A model generated the notes under the pieces. That model saw nothing but the letters and a program-made list of their open reading frames with translations. It had not been told where the DNA came from and searched no databases. From Vicugna vicugna (taxonomy: Eukaryota): DNA of 64,000 nucleotides. Positions 6,491 to 56,860 of this stretch are shown here, piece after piece; position 1 is the first letter of the stretch; each line of letters begins with the position of its first letter. The stretch spans positions 7,022,066 to 7,086,065 of the forward strand of contig MU058213.1 of the NCBI GenBank assembly GCA_013265495.1. Reading direction: 5' to 3'. The position numbers and the translations under genes were made by a program.

Positions 6491-7305
6491 AAACGAAAGC
6501 AGATCATAGCCCTTCTTATTCCAACTCTCTTCTGTTAAGACATTGGAAAGGGAAGGAAATACAAATAAAATTGGAAATGAAATTTAACTTTAAAAAAATA
6601 GTAAGTGTTCAGTTAAAGGAAGGTGTTAGTACATTATTACAATAGCAAATAAATCTCCACAGCCAAGTTGCTGGGGCCCTCCTGTGGATGACTTTAGCAC
6701 ATGACATTATATTTAGTTTTGTTACTTTGGTGCCATTTTGGTCACCCCCACCATGAGCTCCTGGAGGGCAGGGGTCATCTGTGCAGCTGTCTTTGTATAC
6801 GGGTTGAATTGAAATCCTCCCCTGTCTTCTCACTTGATTAGAATCTTCCCCAGAAGAGCGATTCTGTATGGTTTCTTATAAATATGGTTGGCCCTGACTA
6901 TGCTGAGCTGATAAACAGTAACTAACACCTTAAGGGTTGATGAGTTATTCACAAGGCAAGTTCATACACAGAAATTCATCTGATCTTTGCAGTTACCCTA
7001 GAAGGTGAGCAAGATGCTTATTATTACCCCCGTCTCAGATGAGAGGAATAAAAAGAGGCTCAGGTAGGTCTAATAACTTGCCTCTCACCATGAGCGGGAC
7101 AGCTACACTTCTGGAATCAGGAGCAACCTTGCCCAGCTTGACATTCTTTTCAACAGAGAAAGTTATATCCTCCCTTAGATAACCTTTTACACATATGACT
7201 GCTGCTGCACTGCATCCTCTCGATGAGAAGTCCCTAAACACATTTCTCCGGGATTTCAGCATCTCCCCACAACAACTTGTTTTTACCTTACTGAGCATCA
7301 ATCTA

Positions 7306-8335: not shown

Positions 8336-8744
8336 AGTCAGCCCTTGTAACCAAAGGTTCTGCATTTTCTCTTTCTTTTTTTAAAATTGAAGTATAATTG
8401 ATTTACAATGTCATGTTAGTTTCTGGTGTACAGCATAGTGATTCACTTATACATATATATTCTTTTTCATTATAGATTATTACAAGCTATTAAATACAGT
8501 TCCCTGTGCTGTACAGCAGGACCTTGTTTATCAAGCAACCCAAATGTCCATCAGCACATGATTGGATAAAGGTTCTGCATTTTCTGATTCAAGCAACCAT
8601 GGACTGATGCGTAGCTGCAGAACCTGTGGCTCTGGAGGTCCCCTGTACCATGCTGTTTTACATAAGGGACTTGAGCATCTGCAGATTTTGGTATCCAGGA
8701 AGGATTCCTGCAATCAATCCCCTACAGATATCGAGGGATGACTA
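8336..8744 (-). mobile_element. Tigger-family MITE (MER2-like) interrupted by an L1 insertion
   Basis: ataagggacttgagcatctgcagattttggtatcc...gagggatgact is the MER2/Tigger terminal motif; the other end is agtcagcccttg. Confidence 0.75.
8371..8567 (-). mobile_element. Short L1 3' end with 5' inversion
   Basis: T-rich tail and L1 3' UTR on - (8371-8531), then a + oriented L1 piece (aagcaacccaaatgtccatcagc); perfect 18-bp TSD aaaggttctgcattttct at 8353-8370 / 8568-8585. Confidence 0.9.
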
Positions 8745-9509: not shown

Positions 9510-9700
9510 ATATTTGTGTAACTAAGCCCCTGTGAACTGCATCTATTCACATGAGAACATGCCTCTCATCTGAGATGGGGGTAATAATAAGCATCTTGCT
9601 CACCTTCTAGGGTAACTGCAAGGATCAAATGAATTTCTGTGTATGAACTTGCCTTGTGAATGACTCAATACCCCTTAAAGTGTTGATTACTATTTATCAG
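9510..9700 (+). mobile_element. MIR SINE
   Basis: ctctcatctgagatgggggtaataataagcatcttgctcacc...gcaaggatcaaatga. Confidence 0.65.
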
Positions 9701-9722
9701 CTCAGTATAGTCAGGACCAACC

Positions 9723-12322
9723 TGGAGAATTCTACCAAACACATAAAGAACTTATAGTGACCATTCTCAAACTCTTCCAAAAGATTAAAGAGGAGAGAAC
9801 ACTCCCAAACTCATTCTATGAAGCCACCATCACTGATACCAAAACCAGACAAAGACACTCCCAAAAAGAAAACTACAGGCCAATATCATTGATGAACACA
9901 GATGCAAAAATTCTCAACAAAGTATTAGCAAACCGAATCGAACAATACATTAAAAAAACAAAAAACAAATACTATGATCAGGTTTCATTCATCCCAGGGT
10001 CACAAAGATAGTTCAACATATGCAAATCAATGTGATACATCCCATCAACAAAAGAAAGGACAAAAACCACATGATCATCTCAACAGATGCAAAAAGACTG
10101 ATAAAATTCAACATCCATTCATGATAAAAACTCTTAACAAAGTGGGTATAGAGGGAACATATCTCAACATAATAAAAGCTATTTATGACAAACCCACAGC
10201 CAACATAATAGTGAAAAGTTGAAAACCTTCCTGCTAAAATCTGAAATAAGAGATGGATGCCCACTCTCACCACTTCTATTCAACATAATAATTAACAGAA
10301 GTTCTAGCGACAGCAATCAGACAAAGGAAGGGAGCGAGGAAGGAAAGAAGGAAGGAAGGAAGGGAGGAAGGAAGGAAGGAAGGAGAGAAGGAAGAAAGAA
10401 CTCCAAACTGGAAGGGAAGAGGTAAAATTGCAACTATATGTAGACAACATGATACTATATATGGAAAACCCTAAAGACTCCACACAAAAGCTACTAGAAC
10501 TGATAAACAAATTCAGTAAGATAGCAGGATACAAGACTAACGTACTAACATCTGTTGCATTTCTTTACACTAACAATGAAATACCAGAAAAAGAGAGTAA
10601 AGAAACAATCCCTTTTAAAATCACATCAAAAAATTAAAATACTTAGGAATAAACCTGACCAAAGAGGTGAAAGACATATACTAAAGAACTAAAACATTGA
10701 TAAAGGAAACTGAAGATGATTTAGAGAAATGGAAAGATATCCCATGCTCTTGGATTGTAAGAATTAATACTGTTAAAATGGCTATACTATCCAAAGCAAT
10801 CTAAAGATTTAATGTGATCCCTATCAAATTACCCAGGGCATTTTTCACAGAACTAGAAAAAGTAATTCTAAAATTTATATGGAATCACAAAAGCCCCATA
10901 ACTGCCAAAGAAATACTGAGGAAAATAACATAGCTGGAGGAATAACCCTCTCAGACTTCAGACAATACTACAAAGCTACAATAATCAAAACAGTGTGCTA
11001 CTGGCACAAAAACAGCCATAAGGATCAATGGCACAGAACAGAGAGCCCAGAAATAAATCCACACACCTACAGTTAATTAATCGTTGTCAAAGGTGGTAAG
11101 AATATACAATGGAGAAAAGACAATCTCTTCAGCAAGCTGCATTGGGAAGGCTGAACAGCCACATATAAATCAATGACATTAGAACCCTCCCTCATATCAT
11201 ACACAAAAATAAACTCAAAAAGGCTTAAAGATTAAAATATAAGACAGGACACCATAAAACTCCTAGAAGAGAATATAAGCAAAACATCTTCTGACATAAA
11301 TCACAGCAATGTTTTCCTAGGTCAGTCTCCCAAGACAACAGAAATAAAAGCAAAATTAAGTGAATGGTACCTAATGAAATTTATAAGCTTTTGTACAGCA
11401 GAAGAAACTATAAAGAAAATGAAAAGACAACCTACAGACTGGGAGAAAACATGTGCAAACGATGTGACTGACAAGGGCTTAATTTCCAGAATATACAAAT
11501 AGCTCATACACCTCAATAATAATAACATTCCTGCAGGATGTCATTCTAAGTGGAGTAAACCAGAAAGAGAAAGAAAAATACCATATGAGATCGCTTATAT
11601 GTGGAATCTAAAAATAATAATAACAACAACAACAACAAACCCTAGTCACAAAATGGGCAGAAGACCAAACAGACATTTCTTCAAAGAAGACATACATATG
11701 ACAAATAAACACCCCATGTTCAACTGCATCATTATTTACAATAACCAAGAAATGGAAACAATCTAAGTGTCCACTGATGGATGAATGGATAAAGAAAATT
11801 TGATATATATAATGAAATATTTTTCACCTATAAAAAGGAAAAAACCCTTGCCATTTGTAACAACACCTTGAAGGCATTATGCTAAGTGAAATAAGTCAGA
11901 CAAAGACAAATGCTGTATGATCTTACTTATGTGTACAATCTAAAAAAACAGTTTTATTAAAAAGTGGAGTTCATGAATACAGAAAACAGATTAGTCATTA
12001 TCAGAAGCAGTGGTGACAGGTGGGAGAAATGGGAGGAGGGAGTTAAAAAGTACATACTCCTAGGTATAAAACAAGTAAGTCATGGGGATGTAATGTACAG
12101 CATGAGGACTATAGTTAATAATACTTAACTGTATATTTCAAAGTTGCTGATATAGCAAATCTTAAAAGTTCCTATCACAAGAAAAAAACTAAATATATAT
12201 AATGATGGATGTAAATTAGACTTACTGTAGTAAATATTTCACAATATATACAGATATTATGTTGTACAACTGAAACTAATATAAGGTTATTTATCAGTTA
12301 TAGCTAAATTTTTAAACCAAAA
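9723..12322 (+). mobile_element. 5'-truncated, inactivated L1 (ORF2 RT to C-terminus plus 3' UTR)
   Basis: Frameshifted ORF2 peptides: [49 protein letters not shown] (FADD motif equivalent), [16 protein letters not shown]1MA-like 3' UTR at 11720-12310. Confidence 0.97.
10325..10399 (+). repeat. (GGAA)n purine microsatellite inside L1 ORF2
   Basis: Imperfect ggaa/gaag repeats replace the A-rich segment preceding ccaaactggaagggaagagg. Confidence 0.9.
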
Positions 12323-14146
12323 AGGAGAAGTGTTTGAATGATCAGTCACTAATGAGTCTGCCTCTTTTTTTCATATTGTCCATCTTGGAGAACTTGACTT
12401 GCTGGTAAGCTGTTGTGACACTGTCCTTGAATCCCGTAACTTTGTGAAGCAGAAAGAGAGTAACTGGAAGTACATGGCTGAGTTCTGAAGAAGCCTTGAT
12501 CTAGCAAGGGAACCTTATCCTAAGAAATCACATTCTTAGTGTTTCAGGGACAAGTATGACATTTCTATCTCATGATCAAGAACAGGGTAAGAGGACTTGA
12601 TAAGGTAGATCTGTGAAAAAGTTGGAAATTGCCACATTCATCCTCATTCCCTCACCAACACCAAGACACTGAATCTGCTTTCAAAGTACTGAGCTTCAGA
12701 ATGTTGTTTAAAATTTACTTCCTCCTCAGATTCCATGGAAATTGCCCTCTCTTCAGGGGATATAGAACTATTTGAAAATGCTTTAAATAGGCTGCTGATT
12801 TTTCTTATCTTCTCATCCTCTGAGAATTAAGGTCCTAATCTAGCATCTAAGTCAACATGTTGAATATGTGATAAACTCTGGAAGGCAATGCAGCTACTAG
12901 CTGGGGATGTGTTCTACCATAAACACAGAAAAACATAGGAATGAAGCAGGTGATGGTGGTGGCGGTTGCGGTGGTGTGCAGAAGTAAGAGAGATGGAGGT
13001 GGGGGGGAGGGGTATTTCCAGATAGATCAAGTTCCTTTTAAAGACTACCTTTACTTCTCTACCCTTAAATTCCATGAGAAAAACACACATTTTTTAAACA
13101 AATACTCCTTAAGATAAATTAGCTCTGAAGTTTCCTTCTGCCAGTTGAAATCAAAGCAACATTGACTAAAACACTAGCCAATCATAACTTACTTCATATC
13201 TACCTATTAGACCCCAGCTATGATTCAAACATTCTCCTTTGTGAAGATCAGATCTCTAAATATCCAGGTTTCCTCTAAGAATACCTGATTCTCTAACATA
13301 CTGATAAAAAAAAAAGTCCCTTCTCACTACTCCTTTTCAACATCATACTGTAAGTCCTTGCTAATGCAATAAGATAAAAAAAAGGAAATAAAAGGTATAC
13401 AGATAGGAAGAAATAAAACTGTCTTTGTTCACAGAAGACATGGCCATCTAAGCAGAAAATTTGAAAGAACTGACCAAAAAAAAAACCCAAAAAACAAAAA
13501 ACAAAAAACAAAAAACCCTGTAACTAATAATGCATTATAGCAAGGTTGTAAGATACAAGGTCAATTGTTTTCCTATATACCAGCAATGAACAGATAGAAA
13601 TTTGAATTTAAAAACAATACTATTTAGATTAGCATATAAAAACTGAATTACTTAGACATAAATCTAACAAAATATGTACAAGATCTATGCAAGGAAAACT
13701 ATGAATTTTTGATCAATGAAATCAAAGAATTAGTGGAGAGATATTTTATATTCAGGGATTAAAAAAACCCTCAAAATTGTCAAGATGTCAGTTCTTCCCA
13801 ACTTGACCTTATAGATTCAAAGCAATCCCAATCAAAATTTAAGCAAGTTAATTTATAAATTTCAACAAACTCATTCTAAAGTTTACATGGAGAGGCAGGA
13901 AACTCAAAAGAACCAATATAATATTGAAGAACAAAGTAGGAGGAGTGACATACCCCAATCTGAAGAATTACTATAAAGCTACAGTTACTAAGACAGTGTG
14001 GTACTGGCAAAAACACAGACAACTAGGTCACAGAACAGAATAGAGAGCCCAGAAACAAACCCCCATAAATATAGTCAATTAGTCTTTGATAACAGGAACA
14101 AAGGCAGTATGATGAAACAAAGAGAGTCTCTTCAAGAAATGGTGCT

Positions 14147-15275
14147 AGCAGCAAAGGAAACCATAAGCAAAACAAAACGACAATCTACAGAATGGGAGAA
14201 AATGTTTGCAAAAGATGAGACTGACAAGGGCTTGATCTCCAGAATATATAAACAGCTCATACAACTTAATAAGAAAAAAAACAAACAACCCAATCCAAAA
14301 ATGGGCAGAAGACCTAAACAAGCAATTCTCCAATGAAGACATACGAATGACCAATAGGCACATGAAAAAATGCTCTATATTACTAATTATCAGAGAAATG
14401 CAAATCAAAAGTACAATGAGGTATCACCTCACACCAGTCAGAACAGCCATCATTCAAAAATCCACAAATGATAAATGCTGGAGAGGCTGTGGAAAAAAGG
14501 GAACCCTCCTACCCTGTTGGTGGTAATGCAGTTTGTGCAGCCACTAAGGAAAACAGTATGGAGATTTTTCAAAACATTAAAAACAGAGTTACCATATTAC
14601 CCAGCAATCCCATTCCTGGGCATATATCCAGAGGGAACCTTAATTCAAAAAGACACCTGCACCCCCAACATTCATAGCAGCACTATTTACAATAGTCAAG
14701 ACAAGGAAACAACCTACATGTCCAACAAAAAATGACTGGATAAAGAAGTTTTGGTATATTTATACAATGGAATACTACTCAGTCATAAAAATGATAAAAA
14801 AATGCATTTGCAGCAACATGGATTGGCCCTGGAGANNNNNNNNNNNNNNNNNNNNNNNNNNNNNNNNNNNNNNNNNNNNNNNNNNNNNNNNNNNNNNNNN
14901 NNGATATCACTCATATGTGGAATCAAAAAAAAAAAAAAAAGACAAATGAATTCATATATAAAACATAAACAGACTCACTGACAGAGAATACAGACTTGTG
15001 ATTGCCAGAGGGGAGGTGGGTGGAAAAGGATAAACTGGGTGTTCAAGATTTGCAGATACTGACTGGTATATGTAAAATAGATAAACAAGTTTATACGGTA
15101 TAGCACAGGGAAATATATTCAGTATGTTGTAGTAGCTCACTGTGAAAAAGAATATGAAAATGAACACATGTATATCCATGTCTGCCTGAAGCATTGTGCT
15201 ATACACCAGAAACTGACACAACATTGTAAACTGACACAACATTGTAAACTGACTATATATACCTCAATAAAAAAA
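14147..15275 (+). mobile_element. Younger camelid-type L1 3' portion nested in older L1
   Basis: ORF2 C-terminus ([20 protein letters not shown]), 3' UTR, aataaa plus A tail; degenerate TSD aagaaatggtgct (14134-14146) / aagaagtcgtgct (15276-15288). Confidence 0.93.
14836..14902. other. Assembly gap (67 N)
   Basis: Run of N inside the young L1 3' UTR. Confidence 1.
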
Positions 15276-18220: not shown

Positions 18221-18440
18221 TACTAACTACTGTATATAAAATAGATAAACGACAAGGTCCTGCTGTATATATAGCACAGGGAACTATATTCAATATCTTG
18301 TGGTGGTCTATAATGAAAAAGAATATATATGTATGTATAAAAGAATCACTATGCTGTACACCAGAAATTAACACAACATTGTAAACTGACTATACTTCAA
18401 AACAAAAACAAAAAATAAAGCGTTTTCAATTAAAAAAATT
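18221..18440 (+). mobile_element. Short L1 3' end
   Basis: tatagcacagggaactatattcaatatcttg...gtaaactgactatacttcaa; TSD aacatatgggtctctg (18205-18220) / aacatctgggtttctg (18441-18456). Confidence 0.92.
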
Positions 18441-36410: not shown

Positions 36411-36945
36411 GGATGGATTAAGCAGTGCCATGACCGAGGCGCAGGAGGAACATTTACAAACGGGAAATCTGTCCTCTGTCTTCATCTTGGGATCCAACTT
36501 CACAAAAAGTCCTGGCTCATCTTTCTTTGCATAGCTTCCTAGCTCTAGTCATACTCAGCTGCCCATCATTCCATAAGCACCTTCCAAGAGCTAGATACTC
36601 TGTGAGGAGTTGGAGGTTCAAAGATAGAATGACGTGCTGGCCTGAAGGGAGTCCTCTGGCTCGAGCACCTGGCTCTGCATTTGGCCCTGTGATGTTTAGC
36701 AGTTTTTTTCAGACAAGATGAAGGCAGACAAGGCATCTTCAACCCATTTCCAGATAACACCAAGACAGAAGAGGCAAGTTTGCGGATGTCAAGGATGAGA
36801 ATTCAGAGAAAAGTAAATATGCTAAAATCAGTAAGATAAAATAAAATGGGGAAACATGGAAAGCCAGTCAAGTAAATCTGTTCAAATAATTTCCTCATAG
36901 GGAAATTCTGCTAAAAGTGTTTGCTACTCAGAATACTTATTTCTT

Positions 36946-37274
36946 TTTTTTTCCATTGAAATATAGTTTATTTACAAGGTTGTGTTAGTTTCAGGTGTAC
37001 AGCAAAGTGATTCAGTTACACATATATATGTATATATATTCTTTTTCAGATTCTTCTCCATTATAGGTTATTACAAGATATGGAATATAGTTCCTTGTGC
37101 TGTACAGTAGGACCTTGTTGTTCATTTATCTTATATATAGTGCTGTGCATCTGTTAATCCCAAACTCCTAATTTGTCCCACCCTCTCCCCTTTGGTAACC
37201 ATACATTTGTTTCTTATGTCTATGAGTCTATTTCTGTTTTGTAAATAAGTTCATCTGTATCATTTTTAGATTCC
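36946..37274 (-). mobile_element. L1 3' end (cetartiodactyl type)
   Basis: T tail, then gtttcaggtgtacagcaaagtgattcagtta...tttagattcc; flanked by cagaatactt copies. Confidence 0.93.
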
Positions 37275-50270: not shown

Positions 50271-51573
50271 AGCAGTTGCTTAGTAAACATTGTTTTAAGT
50301 TAACAACAAAAAGCCTCTGAGAGCCAATTTTTTCCCAACTTCTGCTCCAGGACGTCAGTTCCCATCTCTTCACCAGGAAAGGCACCAACCTGGCCTGTAG
50401 TTTTATTCTAGGAGGGCCATACTCATCTTTGCTAAATGATGTTTCTAGAAGAAACCTTTGCTCTTGAGCAGCAACAAGAGGTGTGTGGAAATTCAACATA
50501 AGCAAGAATCCTCTCAGAGCCATTTTCCCTAGTTCCCTTGCACAAAGCAGGCTTTTCCCCTCCACTCAAACAACAACAATTCGTTTTGCTTTGATAGGTC
50601 CTCCTAAATAATGGTTTCATCGTTAAACATCTGGCTTCTTCCTAGCAGATGAGGCCTCCAATGAGGAAAGTGTGTTTATAATTCTAATTTGAAACACAGC
50701 ACATTAATATGCTGATTCTCACAATGTTTGCCTTAACCTGTTTGGAGAAATTATGACTACAAATATCTTGTACACAACACCTCTAACTACCAGCTTGTAC
50801 AAACAACATAAGAGCCAGAGCGCCTCATCCAGACGATTGGAACCACTTCAGAGGCGATCATGATTAGTGCTTTGGCTGGAAGCCATATTTTACACAGAAA
50901 CGCAGCATCTGTCTCTGAGATGCTGTCCCAGGCTCACAGAACCACCTCCACGGTTACTAATAAGCCCATTCAAGGGAGCCAGATGGTCTGACGGGAAGAG
51001 CCTGCCTTTTCCTGAGCTAGGCACACTGGAGGGAGGGAGCCAAGGCAGGCTCCAACTCCTGTTTCCTCGGGCTCCAGGTTCCTACAAGGCAGGGTGCAAA
51101 CAGGCGCCACTAAAAAAGAATGTAAATGAGGGTGCTATTCATTATTTACAGCTGGCTCCTTGCCATCCCCTCCTCCTCTGGGCGACAGCGGCCAGTAGGA
51201 ACAGGGAAAGCATCTGATGAGAGCTGGGCAACCCTGGAGGCCTCGAGCCATTGCAAAGCAGTTTCTTTTCTTCTGCGGAGGATCCTGCAGGCTCAGCATT
51301 TCTGGCCCGGAGAACAGCTGAGCTCTTCACTTCCTTCCTAACAAAGCACCAGAGTTCTTCAGCCTCCATGTTTGCACCAAGGGTGTTTGTGTACAACCTG
51401 ATCCAAAAGAGCAGACTTGCTGCTCTATTCCCACTTGTAGCCAAGGTCCTTTGCCCCATGCTGGGTTCAAGGAAAGAGGTGGGGTGGGGGTAGTGACTGG
51501 TCTATAAAGGGGAGACACCTGCAAGCAAGTTCTAGATTCAATTGGCCAGAAGCTGCATCAAGGGAATAGTTCC

Positions 51574-51635
51574 TGCTGTACACCAGAAAGTAACACATTA
51601 TAAACCAACTCTACAGCAACCAAAAATAAACAAAT
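51574..51635 (+). mobile_element. Minimal L1 3' terminus
   Basis: tgctgtacaccagaaagtaacacattataaaccaact; degenerate TSD aagggaatagttcc / aagagaacggttcc. Confidence 0.75.
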
Positions 51636-51849
51636 AAAGAGAACGGTTCCTTTCTTCTGGGTGAGTGCCCATGCTGTAAAAGTTCAGTATTTACATGTCT
51701 ACGTCATCTTTCTCCAACTGATTTTAAGTAACATGAGAGCATGGACCACACGTCACACTTATTCTCAATTTCTCCAAAGTAGCAAGCTAACCCAGTGCCC
51801 AGAAGATCACTGCTAAACCCTTAAAAACAGTTTTTAAGTCTAAGTAAAC

Positions 51850-52193
51850 TTTTTTTGTATGAATTTTTTTTTATTGAAGTATAGGCAGTTTGCACTGTGT
51901 CGATTTCTGGTGTACAGCAAAGTGCTTCAGTCATAAACATACATATACTCATTTTCATATTCTTTTTCACCGTGAGTTACTACAAGATACTGAATATAGT
52001 TCCCTGGGCTATACAGTATGAACTTGTTTACCGGATTTTGTGAGAATCCTCTTGTATTTCAAAGCGAGAGACACTCTGCCAGAGTTCAGTAGGTGTTCTG
52101 TGCAATTCAAGGGGCTTGTAGATGTAATTCTTGGTGTATTTGTGGGAGAGCGAGCTGTGAATCTCTCTACTCCGCCACTTTGGTACCTCCTCC
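51850..52193 (-). mobile_element. Internally deleted L1: 5' terminus fused to 3' terminus
   Basis: On - strand, ggaggaggtaccaaagtggcggagtag (L1 5' start-like) runs to aatccggtaa, then acaagttcatactg (L1 3' UTR) and A tail; 14/16 TSD at 51834-51849 / 52194-52209. Confidence 0.8.
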
Positions 52194-52296
52194 TTAACTC
52201 TATGTAAACGTTTTGATTGAATATAAAATGTATAATTTTGCATTTTGAATTTAATCTAATATATCTCTACACAAATTGCAAAAACTAAAGACTGCT

Positions 52297-52390
52297 GGGG
52301 GGTGAGTATAGCTCAGTGGTAAAGCGCATGCTTAGCTACCATGAAGTCTTGGATTCAATTCCCAGTACCTCTACTGAAAAAAAAAAAAAA
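52297..52390 (+). mobile_element. Vic-1-type SINE (short A-tailed form)
   Basis: gagtatagctcagtggtaaagcgcatgcttagc...ggattcaattcccagtacctc followed by A14. Confidence 0.9.
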
Positions 52391-52589
52391 TTAAGACTCT
52401 TGCTGCTGGGGTTCACACAGACCAGCTCCCCATGTTGGTTGCCAAAAGTCAGGTAACTTTTCAATTCCACCTGAGTCTTTTCCTTTAATTGTTTAAAAAA
52501 TAAATGAATACAGGAACAGACACATCTATATGCTCTCTTCTTGAACGTGGAATTTTTTTCTTGCCTAATGATATAAAACATGCTGGCTG

Positions 52590-53195
52590 CTAGTGCTAAT
52601 CCAGATCCTCTGGATTTAAGTGACAAAAGTCCAACTCTAAATATTCTCATCAAAAAAGGGGGTAGGGATTTGTTGGCTTCTGAATTCAAACTATGAAGAC
52701 AGCACTGATGGAGCCAGGTCCAGGGTGAGCTAGATGCAGACTCAGAGGCCTCCCCTCCCTCTCTTCGCCCTCTCTTATCTCTGCATTTGCCCGCATATCT
52801 GCTTCAGTTTCTCCGGACAACTGACCCACACATTGGAAATACGGCCACAGGCAACCCAGGTTGATATCCCTCCAGCCACATGGAAAAGACTGAAAGAAAA
52901 GCAAAAAAAAAAAATCCTGCTCTTCTCCATCAGTTCCAGTTAGAAAAGGAAAGGATCCTGATTGGCCTACGTGAGTCGTGTTCCTAGGCATGGGCTGGTC
53001 GTGTGACTGGGGGAGAGTGAATGAGCTGGGCTCAGGCTTGGTCACGTGCCCATCTCTGTGGCCCAGGAGAGAGACCGGCAGACACCCACCAGTACTGACT
53101 GAGGTGGAGATAAAACCATTGCCCAAAGATAAGGACTGCTGTTACCAGAAGGCAGGCAGGAGGAGGGCCTGGGCCAACTCAACACATCCTCTATG
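52590..53195 (-). mobile_element. MaLR solo LTR (MLT1J/K-like)
   Basis: aagtgacaaaagtccaactc...ctgattggcct...ggcttggtcacgtgcccatc...gctgttaccagaaggc. Confidence 0.75.
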
Positions 53196-53729
53196 TTACT
53201 TTAGGGGGGAAAAACAAGTTATGCAAGGCCACATTATTATTTTTTATGTCAGATATTTGCAGCAGCAAACAAGTTTACCTCCACAGCCTTGGAAAACTGA
53301 AGACAAGGATTTGACTCCTGATGGTATTTTTTATATTTCCCCAAACAACTTTTGAGAAGTCGAGAAAGTTCACCATCCCAGCCAATGACATCTCATTTCT
53401 AACATTTTATTATTATTATTTGTTTTTATTGTAACTGAAATTTTATGTGCAATGAGTTTAAAAAGGCACATAGTTCTACAAAGGGTAGTTATCATAGAAA
53501 GTAACAGTTCTCTAACAACCTTCCCCCTATCCCAGTAAAGCACATTTACTATTTATTTTGACACTTACCTCTATACCTCTAATAGGAAATGTCAACATTT
53601 TCCTTTCGCATTTTTAGTTTTAAGCATTGCCTACTGACTTCACTTATTGAGTAGGTATTTCATTCTCTCTCTGCCCCACCTCTCCAACACACACACACCA
53701 CACGTGGGCATACTTTCCAATATTTTTTA

Positions 53730-56011: not shown

Positions 56012-56860
56012 CTATACTGTCCGATACAGTAGCTACTAGACACTGAAGCTATATAAATTTAAACTAAATTAAGCAGATCCAGCAATCGTATTCCTGGGCA
56101 TATATCCAGAGGAACCTTAATTTAAAAAGATACACCCACTTGAATATTTATAGCAGCACTATTTACAATAGCCAAGACATGGAAACAGCCTGAATGTCCA
56201 TTGACAGATGACTGGATAAAGAAGCTGTGGTATATTTACACAATGGCATACTACTCAGCCACAAAAAATAAAATAATGCCATTTGTAGCAACATGGATGA
56301 ACTTGGAGACTGTCATTCTAAGTGAAATAAGCCAGAAAGAAAAATACCATATGATACCACTCATATGTAGAACCTAAAAAAAAGACAAATGAACTTATTT
56401 ACAAAACAGAAATAGACTCAGGCATAGAAAACAAACTTATGGTTACCAGTGGGGGAAAAGGGTGGGAAGGGATAAACTGGGAGTTCGAGATTTGCAGATA
56501 CTAACTAGTATATACATAAAATAGATAAATAACAAGTTCATACTGTATAGCACAGGGAACTGTATTTGCTATCTTGTAGTTACTTATGGTGAAAAAGAAT
56601 ATGAAAACGAATATATGTATGTTCCTGTAAGACTGAAGCATCGTGCTGCACACCAGAAATTGACACAAAATTGTAAACTGACTATACTTCAATAAGTAAA
56701 TAAATATACACACATACACACACACATAAATTAAGCAAACTTCAAAATTCAATTCCTCAGTTTCACCAGTCACAACCCCACGTGACTAATGGCTGTTGTG
56801 CTGGACAGCACAGGTACACAGTGTCTCTACCACTGCAGGAAGTTCTATTGGACAGCACTG
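56012..56860 (-). mobile_element. MER3 (hAT-Charlie MITE) split by an L1 insertion
   Basis: ctgtccgatacagtagctactag on the left; aattcaattcctcagtt...aagttctattggacagcactg on the right. Confidence 0.85.
56076..56726 (+). mobile_element. Camelid-type L1 3' end
   Basis: gatccagcaatcgtattcctgggcatatatccag...gactatacttcaataa; perfect TSD taaattaagca (56065-56075 / 56727-56737). Confidence 0.95.

Follow-up and report, generated by a model that had tools for sequence, protein, structure and literature searches.

The window, by which we mean the whole 64-kb stretch of DNA analysed here, carries on its minus strand a 344-bp unit (52193 to 51850) that joins 162 nt of L1-type 5'-terminal sequence to the final ~160 nt of an L1 3'UTR, followed by an A tail. 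We refer to this unit as a mini-L1. Its parts, together with the L1 3'UTR that serves as a comparator, are as follows.

52194..52209, minus strand: upstream copy of the target site duplication (TSD); the likeness extends to 52214, with plus-strand TTTT/G at the outer edge
52032..52193, minus strand: first 162 nt of an L1-type 5'UTR (putative exon 1), with a G-rich start and a CCG end
52172..52181, minus strand: motif that we take to be YY1-like, degenerate in the window copy (GTGG); the loose-end consensus of other copies has ATGG
52031, minus strand: junction base, G in the window copy and A in 45–78% of contig depth
51873..52031, minus strand: last ~160 nt of the L1 3'UTR (putative exon 2), beginning directly after the AATAG of intact 3'UTRs
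51850..51872, minus strand: A tail, made up of A9, seven other letters and A7
51834..51849, minus strand: downstream copy of the TSD
56499..56524, plus strand: unspliced L1 3'UTR comparator with a branch-point heptamer and an AG acceptor; the same arrangement is present at 15057–15080 and 18221–18244

Both hallmarks of L1 retrotransposition, a TSD and poly(A), are present on the mini-L1. A preliminary description of this DNA had proposed the bipartite minus-strand anatomy, with which sequence and coordinates agree, and the 16-bp TSD with two mismatches that it reported was recovered at 51834–51849 and 52194–52209. The duplication can be widened to 21 bp with three mismatches; among 20,000 random 21-offset windows, 14 (the real sites included) match the left copy at two or fewer mismatches. 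The plus-strand TTTT/G at its outer edge is a near-consensus L1 endonuclease site, and resembles the sites quoted for human L1 (PMC5860796). The 344 bp are wholly explained by the UTR ends and the tail, with ORF1 absent and no ORF left. The proposal that both ORFs are gone and that the remainder was inserted as one retrotransposed unit is supported. The unit does not stand out in RNA folding (z 0.47). No sign of function is evident in the window copy, which is decayed.

The 3' half is identical at 151 of 171 positions to the L1 3'UTR near 56530–56710. The fragment at 56.5 kb is itself an L1, as the frame upstream matches residues 1196–1259 of human L1 ORF2p (E 4e-23, PDB search), and the earlier assignment of the 3' half to the L1 3'UTR segment near 56530–56695 is confirmed by this identity and by the upstream ORF2p match.

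Neighbouring features of the window

A simple tRNA-derived SINE with an A tail lies ~90 bp from the mini-L1 (52296–52389, plus strand), and we take it to resemble camelid vic-1. Rfam reports a tRNA at 52302–52373 (31.1 bits), and the SINE has several relatives in the window; vic-1 is mentioned in the SINEBase paper (PMC3531059). This was the sole Rfam match in the region searched (50500–53500), with none in the mini-L1.

At 8354–8583 on the minus strand there is a 200-bp 5'-inverted L1 of the twin-primed type with a perfect 15-bp TSD. In the inserted sequence (8369–8568), 36 nt of the antisense ORF2 end are joined to a sense 3'UTR piece, with 306–338 nt of L1 missing between the two, and the sense piece starts within 1 nt of the 3'UTR site of the mini-L1 junction. 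This coincidence could be due to chance, to a hotspot of breakage or to the acceptor described below having been used a second time. In intact copies the inverted piece is followed ~11 nt later by a possible GT donor, and the idea that the template of this inverted L1 was itself spliced is speculative.

Other repeats include a 164-bp inverted pair (6886–7049 and 9559–9722; 91% identical and 2.5 kb apart) beside an RT-like fragment at 9679–10008, and a ~480-bp direct repeat (10603–11086 and 13612–14088; 65% identical) that is probably two old repeat copies. The window contains 67 N letters near 14836–14902, inside an L1 fragment. A Pfam search of 136 of the 169 stop-free stretches of at least 70 aa matched only the RT fragment at 9679–10008, and no host gene context was established from these stretches. 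The L1 ORF2 tail at 56.5 kb was not matched by Pfam, although it was by the PDB search.

Copies of the mini-L1 at other loci

Public contigs of four runs (X1 and X7, DNA; X15 and X20, RNA) were aligned to positions 51660–52289 at 80% likeness, and 32 of the 48,341 contig pieces, with long ones favoured, were listed. Twelve of these 32 bridge the junction, reaching 31 letters or more to either side of it at 11–16% substitutions (4 of 8 listed in X1, 4 of 8 in X7, 3 of 8 in X15 and 1 of 8 in X20). When merged by mismatch pattern across runs they represent up to nine loci among the matches listed. Several carry kilobases of unrelated flank, and their net length varies from −8 to +5. Piece no. 28 of X7 crosses the junction with no gaps at 2.5 times single-copy depth, and is a collapse of near-identical copies. 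The bridging contigs in the two RNA runs may be genomic copies. Because the same junction occurs at many loci it is not a one-off deletion, and the mini-L1 is, with near certainty, a multi-copy family. The preliminary description had put forward such a family and had set against it a single-copy junction left by one deletion; the presence of the junction at several other loci decides for the former.

At position 52031, A accounts for 45%, 68%, 49% and 78% of the depth in X1, X7, X15 and X20 respectively (45, 56, 20 and 17 contigs). This share pools bridging and unspliced contigs, and some of those bearing A could be unspliced; the non-A remainder is in part made up of unspliced L1 5' ends. With single-copy flank depths of 10.2 in X1 and 23.6 in X7, the junction-A depth is 117 and 225 times single-copy flank. 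As depth sums are not copy numbers, these values yield only a rough figure of tens to a few hundred copies, and the 45–56 contigs are the firmer measure.

The recurrence of the same junction in the same register at many other loci, without a gap in the case of X7 no. 28, also bears on whether the window copy could be a full-length L1 that suffered its own deletion after insertion, unrelated to the family. Such a deletion would account for the G in the window where the family commonly has A, and the window locus's own junction is spanned by none of the listed contig pieces in any run. However, a single A-to-G change in a copy that is 11–16% diverged is far likelier than an independent deletion ending at the same base, and we consider a local deletion highly improbable.

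The 5' half corresponds to the end of a high-copy repeat: its depth in X1 is 760–2,860 times single-copy flank, dropping to 22 and 4 times in the final two bins. It also occurs within longer elements that continue beyond 52028 into other sequence (pieces 6, 7 and 32), and no second copy of it is present within the 64-kb window. Beside the depth profile and these longer elements, its probable assignment as an L1 5' terminus draws on the general character of cetartiodactyl L1 5' ends. The earlier claim of an L1 5' end is upheld as regards a high-copy end shared with longer elements, its L1-specific identity being probable.

Viral and genome contig collections gave no match in exact-pattern scans with junction, 5'-half or 3'UTR sequence, nor did plasmids and phages in blastn. 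Short scans returned 24 metagenome and 2 viral matches, which we discarded as chance, the likeness in all 26 extending no further than about the typed motif (31 letters or fewer).

Both edges of the 51850–52193 insertion are present in X15 (pieces 9 and 16), which differs from the window at 8 of 190 left-flank positions (~4%). This degree of divergence would fit another camelid genus, with a split roughly 16–17 million years ago. Since a run that is ~4% divergent carries the same insertion, the mini-L1 insertion is old. At another junction-bearing locus, one mismatch pattern is common to X1, X15 and X20.

The junction and how it was formed

Read on the sense strand, the window junction is CCG/GTAAAC, and the TAA described earlier as common to both sides is present at 52028–52030. 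The preliminary description had taken the retained GT as an argument against clean splicing, and had favoured template switching or a microhomology deletion. On the donor side, pieces 6, 7 and 32 (two loci among the matches listed) match the 5' half to exactly 52028 and then diverge, which is consistent with an unspliced CCG/GTAA donor, as judged from where the alignments end. On the acceptor side, three of the four window L1 copies that cover the site have an AG splice acceptor where the deletion ends. These three have AATAG/ATAAA together with TACTAAC or TACTGAC, a heptamer of the branch-point consensus type, which ends 17–19 nt before the end of the acceptor AG. The acceptor follows the match to ORF2p residues 1196–1259 of 1275 at a distance of ~190 nt, and has no polypyrimidine tract in the window L1 copies. 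The most diverged L1 3'UTR copy (36930–37210, minus strand) has neither the branch-point heptamer nor AATAG. On the basis of this one diverged copy, the acceptor could have originated among younger camelid L1s.

Splicing of a CCG/GTAA donor to an AATAG/AT acceptor gives CCG/ATAAAC, an exact GT-AG product with A at 52031, and it is this base that occupies 45–78% of the depth there. G looks like the less common state, and the junction A of the window copy was probably mutated to G at a later time. The argument drawn from the retained GT thus hinged on one base and is not supported. The GTGG of the YY1-like motif in the window copy is likewise probably a later change, as loose ends elsewhere have ATGG.

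No deletion at 52033–52034 reaches 10% of depth, which places the common crossover at the single G of GT-AG and not in the longest shared block, AAAAT. We also considered whether A at 52031 could come from ordinary L1 3'UTR contigs stretched across the junction, and rejected this because such stretching needs a deletion at 52033–52034, where none of at least 10% is seen. It is also contradicted by the behaviour of such contigs, which appear as loose ends at 52028 and 52030, and by the depth, which climbs from 52031 to 52033.

A junction formed with no splicing would require reverse transcriptase to halt in the 3'UTR and jump to a look-alike stretch of the 5'UTR, or recombination at the DNA level, as a single event or a recurrent one, followed by amplification in trans. 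The breakpoints are indeed homeologous (AAAATCCGGTAA versus AAAATAGATAA, 9 of 12 aligned positions), the window copy's junction is exactly a crossover within the common TAA, and the inverted L1 at 8369–8568 breaks at nearly the same 3'UTR position; the missing polypyrimidine tract also points this way. Yet the commonest junction, with A at 52031, is a 1-nt overlap that coincides with both the GT and the AG, and crossovers in the 5-nt AAAAT, which would be expected to be commonest under template switching, make up less than 10% of depth. The canonical branch-point heptamer, correctly spaced in three of four copies, argues further against it. We regard a template switch as unlikely and its earlier proposal as probably wrong, and consider a splice origin of the mini-L1 family to be well favoured.

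A different joint, between 52029 and 52124 with 6 letters between, is present in one contig each of X1 and X7. Here the same 3'UTR point meets a site ~94 nt earlier in the 5' half, representing either a shorter variant or an independent event. The contig joints shown (15 of 30, this one among them, with 1–2 contigs per run) were left out of the inference.

Mobilisation and relationship to known elements

The mini-L1 is best read as a SpIRE-like element without both ORFs that was mobilised in trans. We assign a probability of roughly 0.5 to the account as a whole, comprising a spliced L1 RNA, loss of both ORFs, mobilisation in trans and mostly dead-end copies. It would begin with a camelid L1 lineage that had two cryptic splice sites, both predicted from the sequence: a donor at 162 nt in the 5'UTR and an acceptor in the 3'UTR. 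A full-length transcript of such an L1 would be spliced from +162 to the 3'UTR, with removal of the rest of the 5'UTR, ORF1 and ORF2, and would be polyadenylated at the normal L1 end to leave an RNA of ~320 nt. As the spliced RNA encodes neither protein, ORF1p and ORF2p would have to be supplied in trans; those of other, intact L1s would copy it by target-primed reverse transcription, as happens with processed pseudogenes. Many repetitions of this process would produce the tens to a few hundred copies that share a single junction, and the window copy would be one old, decayed member in which the junction A has become G. Human spliced L1 RNAs are known to retrotranspose, some with proteins in trans, and one without functional ORF1p shows low-level retrotransposition when ORF1p is provided in trans; human SpIREs are compromised for later rounds (PMC5860796).

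If splicing is granted, most copies are rather likely to be dead ends that full-length L1 sources produced repeatedly. The junction-A depth is 0.11–0.16% of peak L1 3'-end depth, which is in line with inefficient mobilisation in trans. The same depth is 15–26% of that at 52052 in the 5' half, and this higher share could reflect either self-amplification or short RNAs that were merely copied whole. Reverse transcription reaches the 5' end of a 320-nt RNA much more frequently than that of a 6–7 kb RNA, and full copying of short RNAs inflates a 5'-end share.

Self-amplification would mean that the element was born by splicing and then propagated itself, with at least one spliced copy still transcribed from what it had kept of the internal Pol II promoter (first 162 nt, YY1-like site included) and acting as a master of a non-autonomous, ORF-less L1 family. 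Having kept the promoter start and the tail, it would be a SpIRE that was not dead on arrival, and an L1 parasite that forms the L1-clade counterpart of Bov-A and RIME. The 15–26% share is well above the 2% that human SpIREs make up among full-length L1s. The mini-L1 has kept 162 nt at its 5' end where human SpIREs have 97, and SpIRE97/622 retains weak promoter activity (PMC5860796); the near-identical copies collapsed in X7 no. 28 also fit a propagating element. However, the family makes up just 0.11–0.16% of all L1 3' ends by depth, and human SpIREs are dead ends in assays (PMC5860796). Furthermore, the junction CpG is decayed in 58–85% of depth and the decay goes in both directions (38 versus 30 and 35 versus 36 contigs), so that no fixed master variant is apparent at the junction. 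The preliminary description had seen in the mini-L1 the architecture of a SINE-like parasite of L1; we view self-propagation as a possible but doubtful outcome.

Dead-end or not, the mini-L1 shares with human SpIREs an internal L1 deletion, here bounded by a putative GT donor and an AG acceptor, a TSD, poly(A) and one junction at many loci, and one human class similarly requires protein in trans (PMC5860796). The human classes are spliced inside the 5'UTR or into ORF1 (97/622, 97/790, 97/976 and 97/853), keep ORF2 and are several kb long, and they comprise 131 copies, or ~2% of full-length L1s (PMC5860796). In contrast, the mini-L1 has its acceptor in the 3'UTR, has lost both ORFs and is only ~320 nt; its 3'UTR acceptor and loss of ORF2 place it outside the described human SpIRE classes.

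The mini-L1 also exists in multiple copies and comprises just the two ends of a partner LINE, the L1 identity of its 5' end being probable. In this it resembles the ORF-less bipartite LINEs (Bov-A, RIME, NARTc, Vingi derivatives and WALLSI3), which likewise contain only the ends of a partner, have no ORF, are multi-copy and are of Pol II type (PMC5786205). In a 2018 survey, such elements are listed only for RTE, Ingi, Vingi and R2 and are ascribed to internal deletion (Kojima 2018, PMC5786205), whereas the mini-L1 derives from the L1 clade and is apparently splice-made. HAL1 is similarly a non-autonomous L1 derivative with L1 5' and 3' ends, but it retains ORF1 (PMC5786205) and the mini-L1 has no ORF. 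SINEBase defines a SINE by a Pol III transcript with a small-RNA-derived head (PMC3531059); the mini-L1 has no Pol III RNA head and is not a SINE by this definition. In the literature searched we found no account of such a camelid element or of a 5'UTR-to-3'UTR SpIRE, and the Repbase and Dfam catalogues, which lay outside that search, may hold one.

The mini-L1 would extend the known products of L1 splicing past the human 5'UTR and ORF1 events to a splice that deletes both genes. It would also add the L1 clade to the sources of ORF-less bipartite elements, a case absent from the 2018 survey (PMC5786205). If its copies are dead ends, they would constitute a fossil record of splicing as a restriction on ancient camelid L1, and mobilisation in trans versus in cis would become measurable in a germline. 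If masters exist, splicing would be a route by which L1 spawns its own short parasites.
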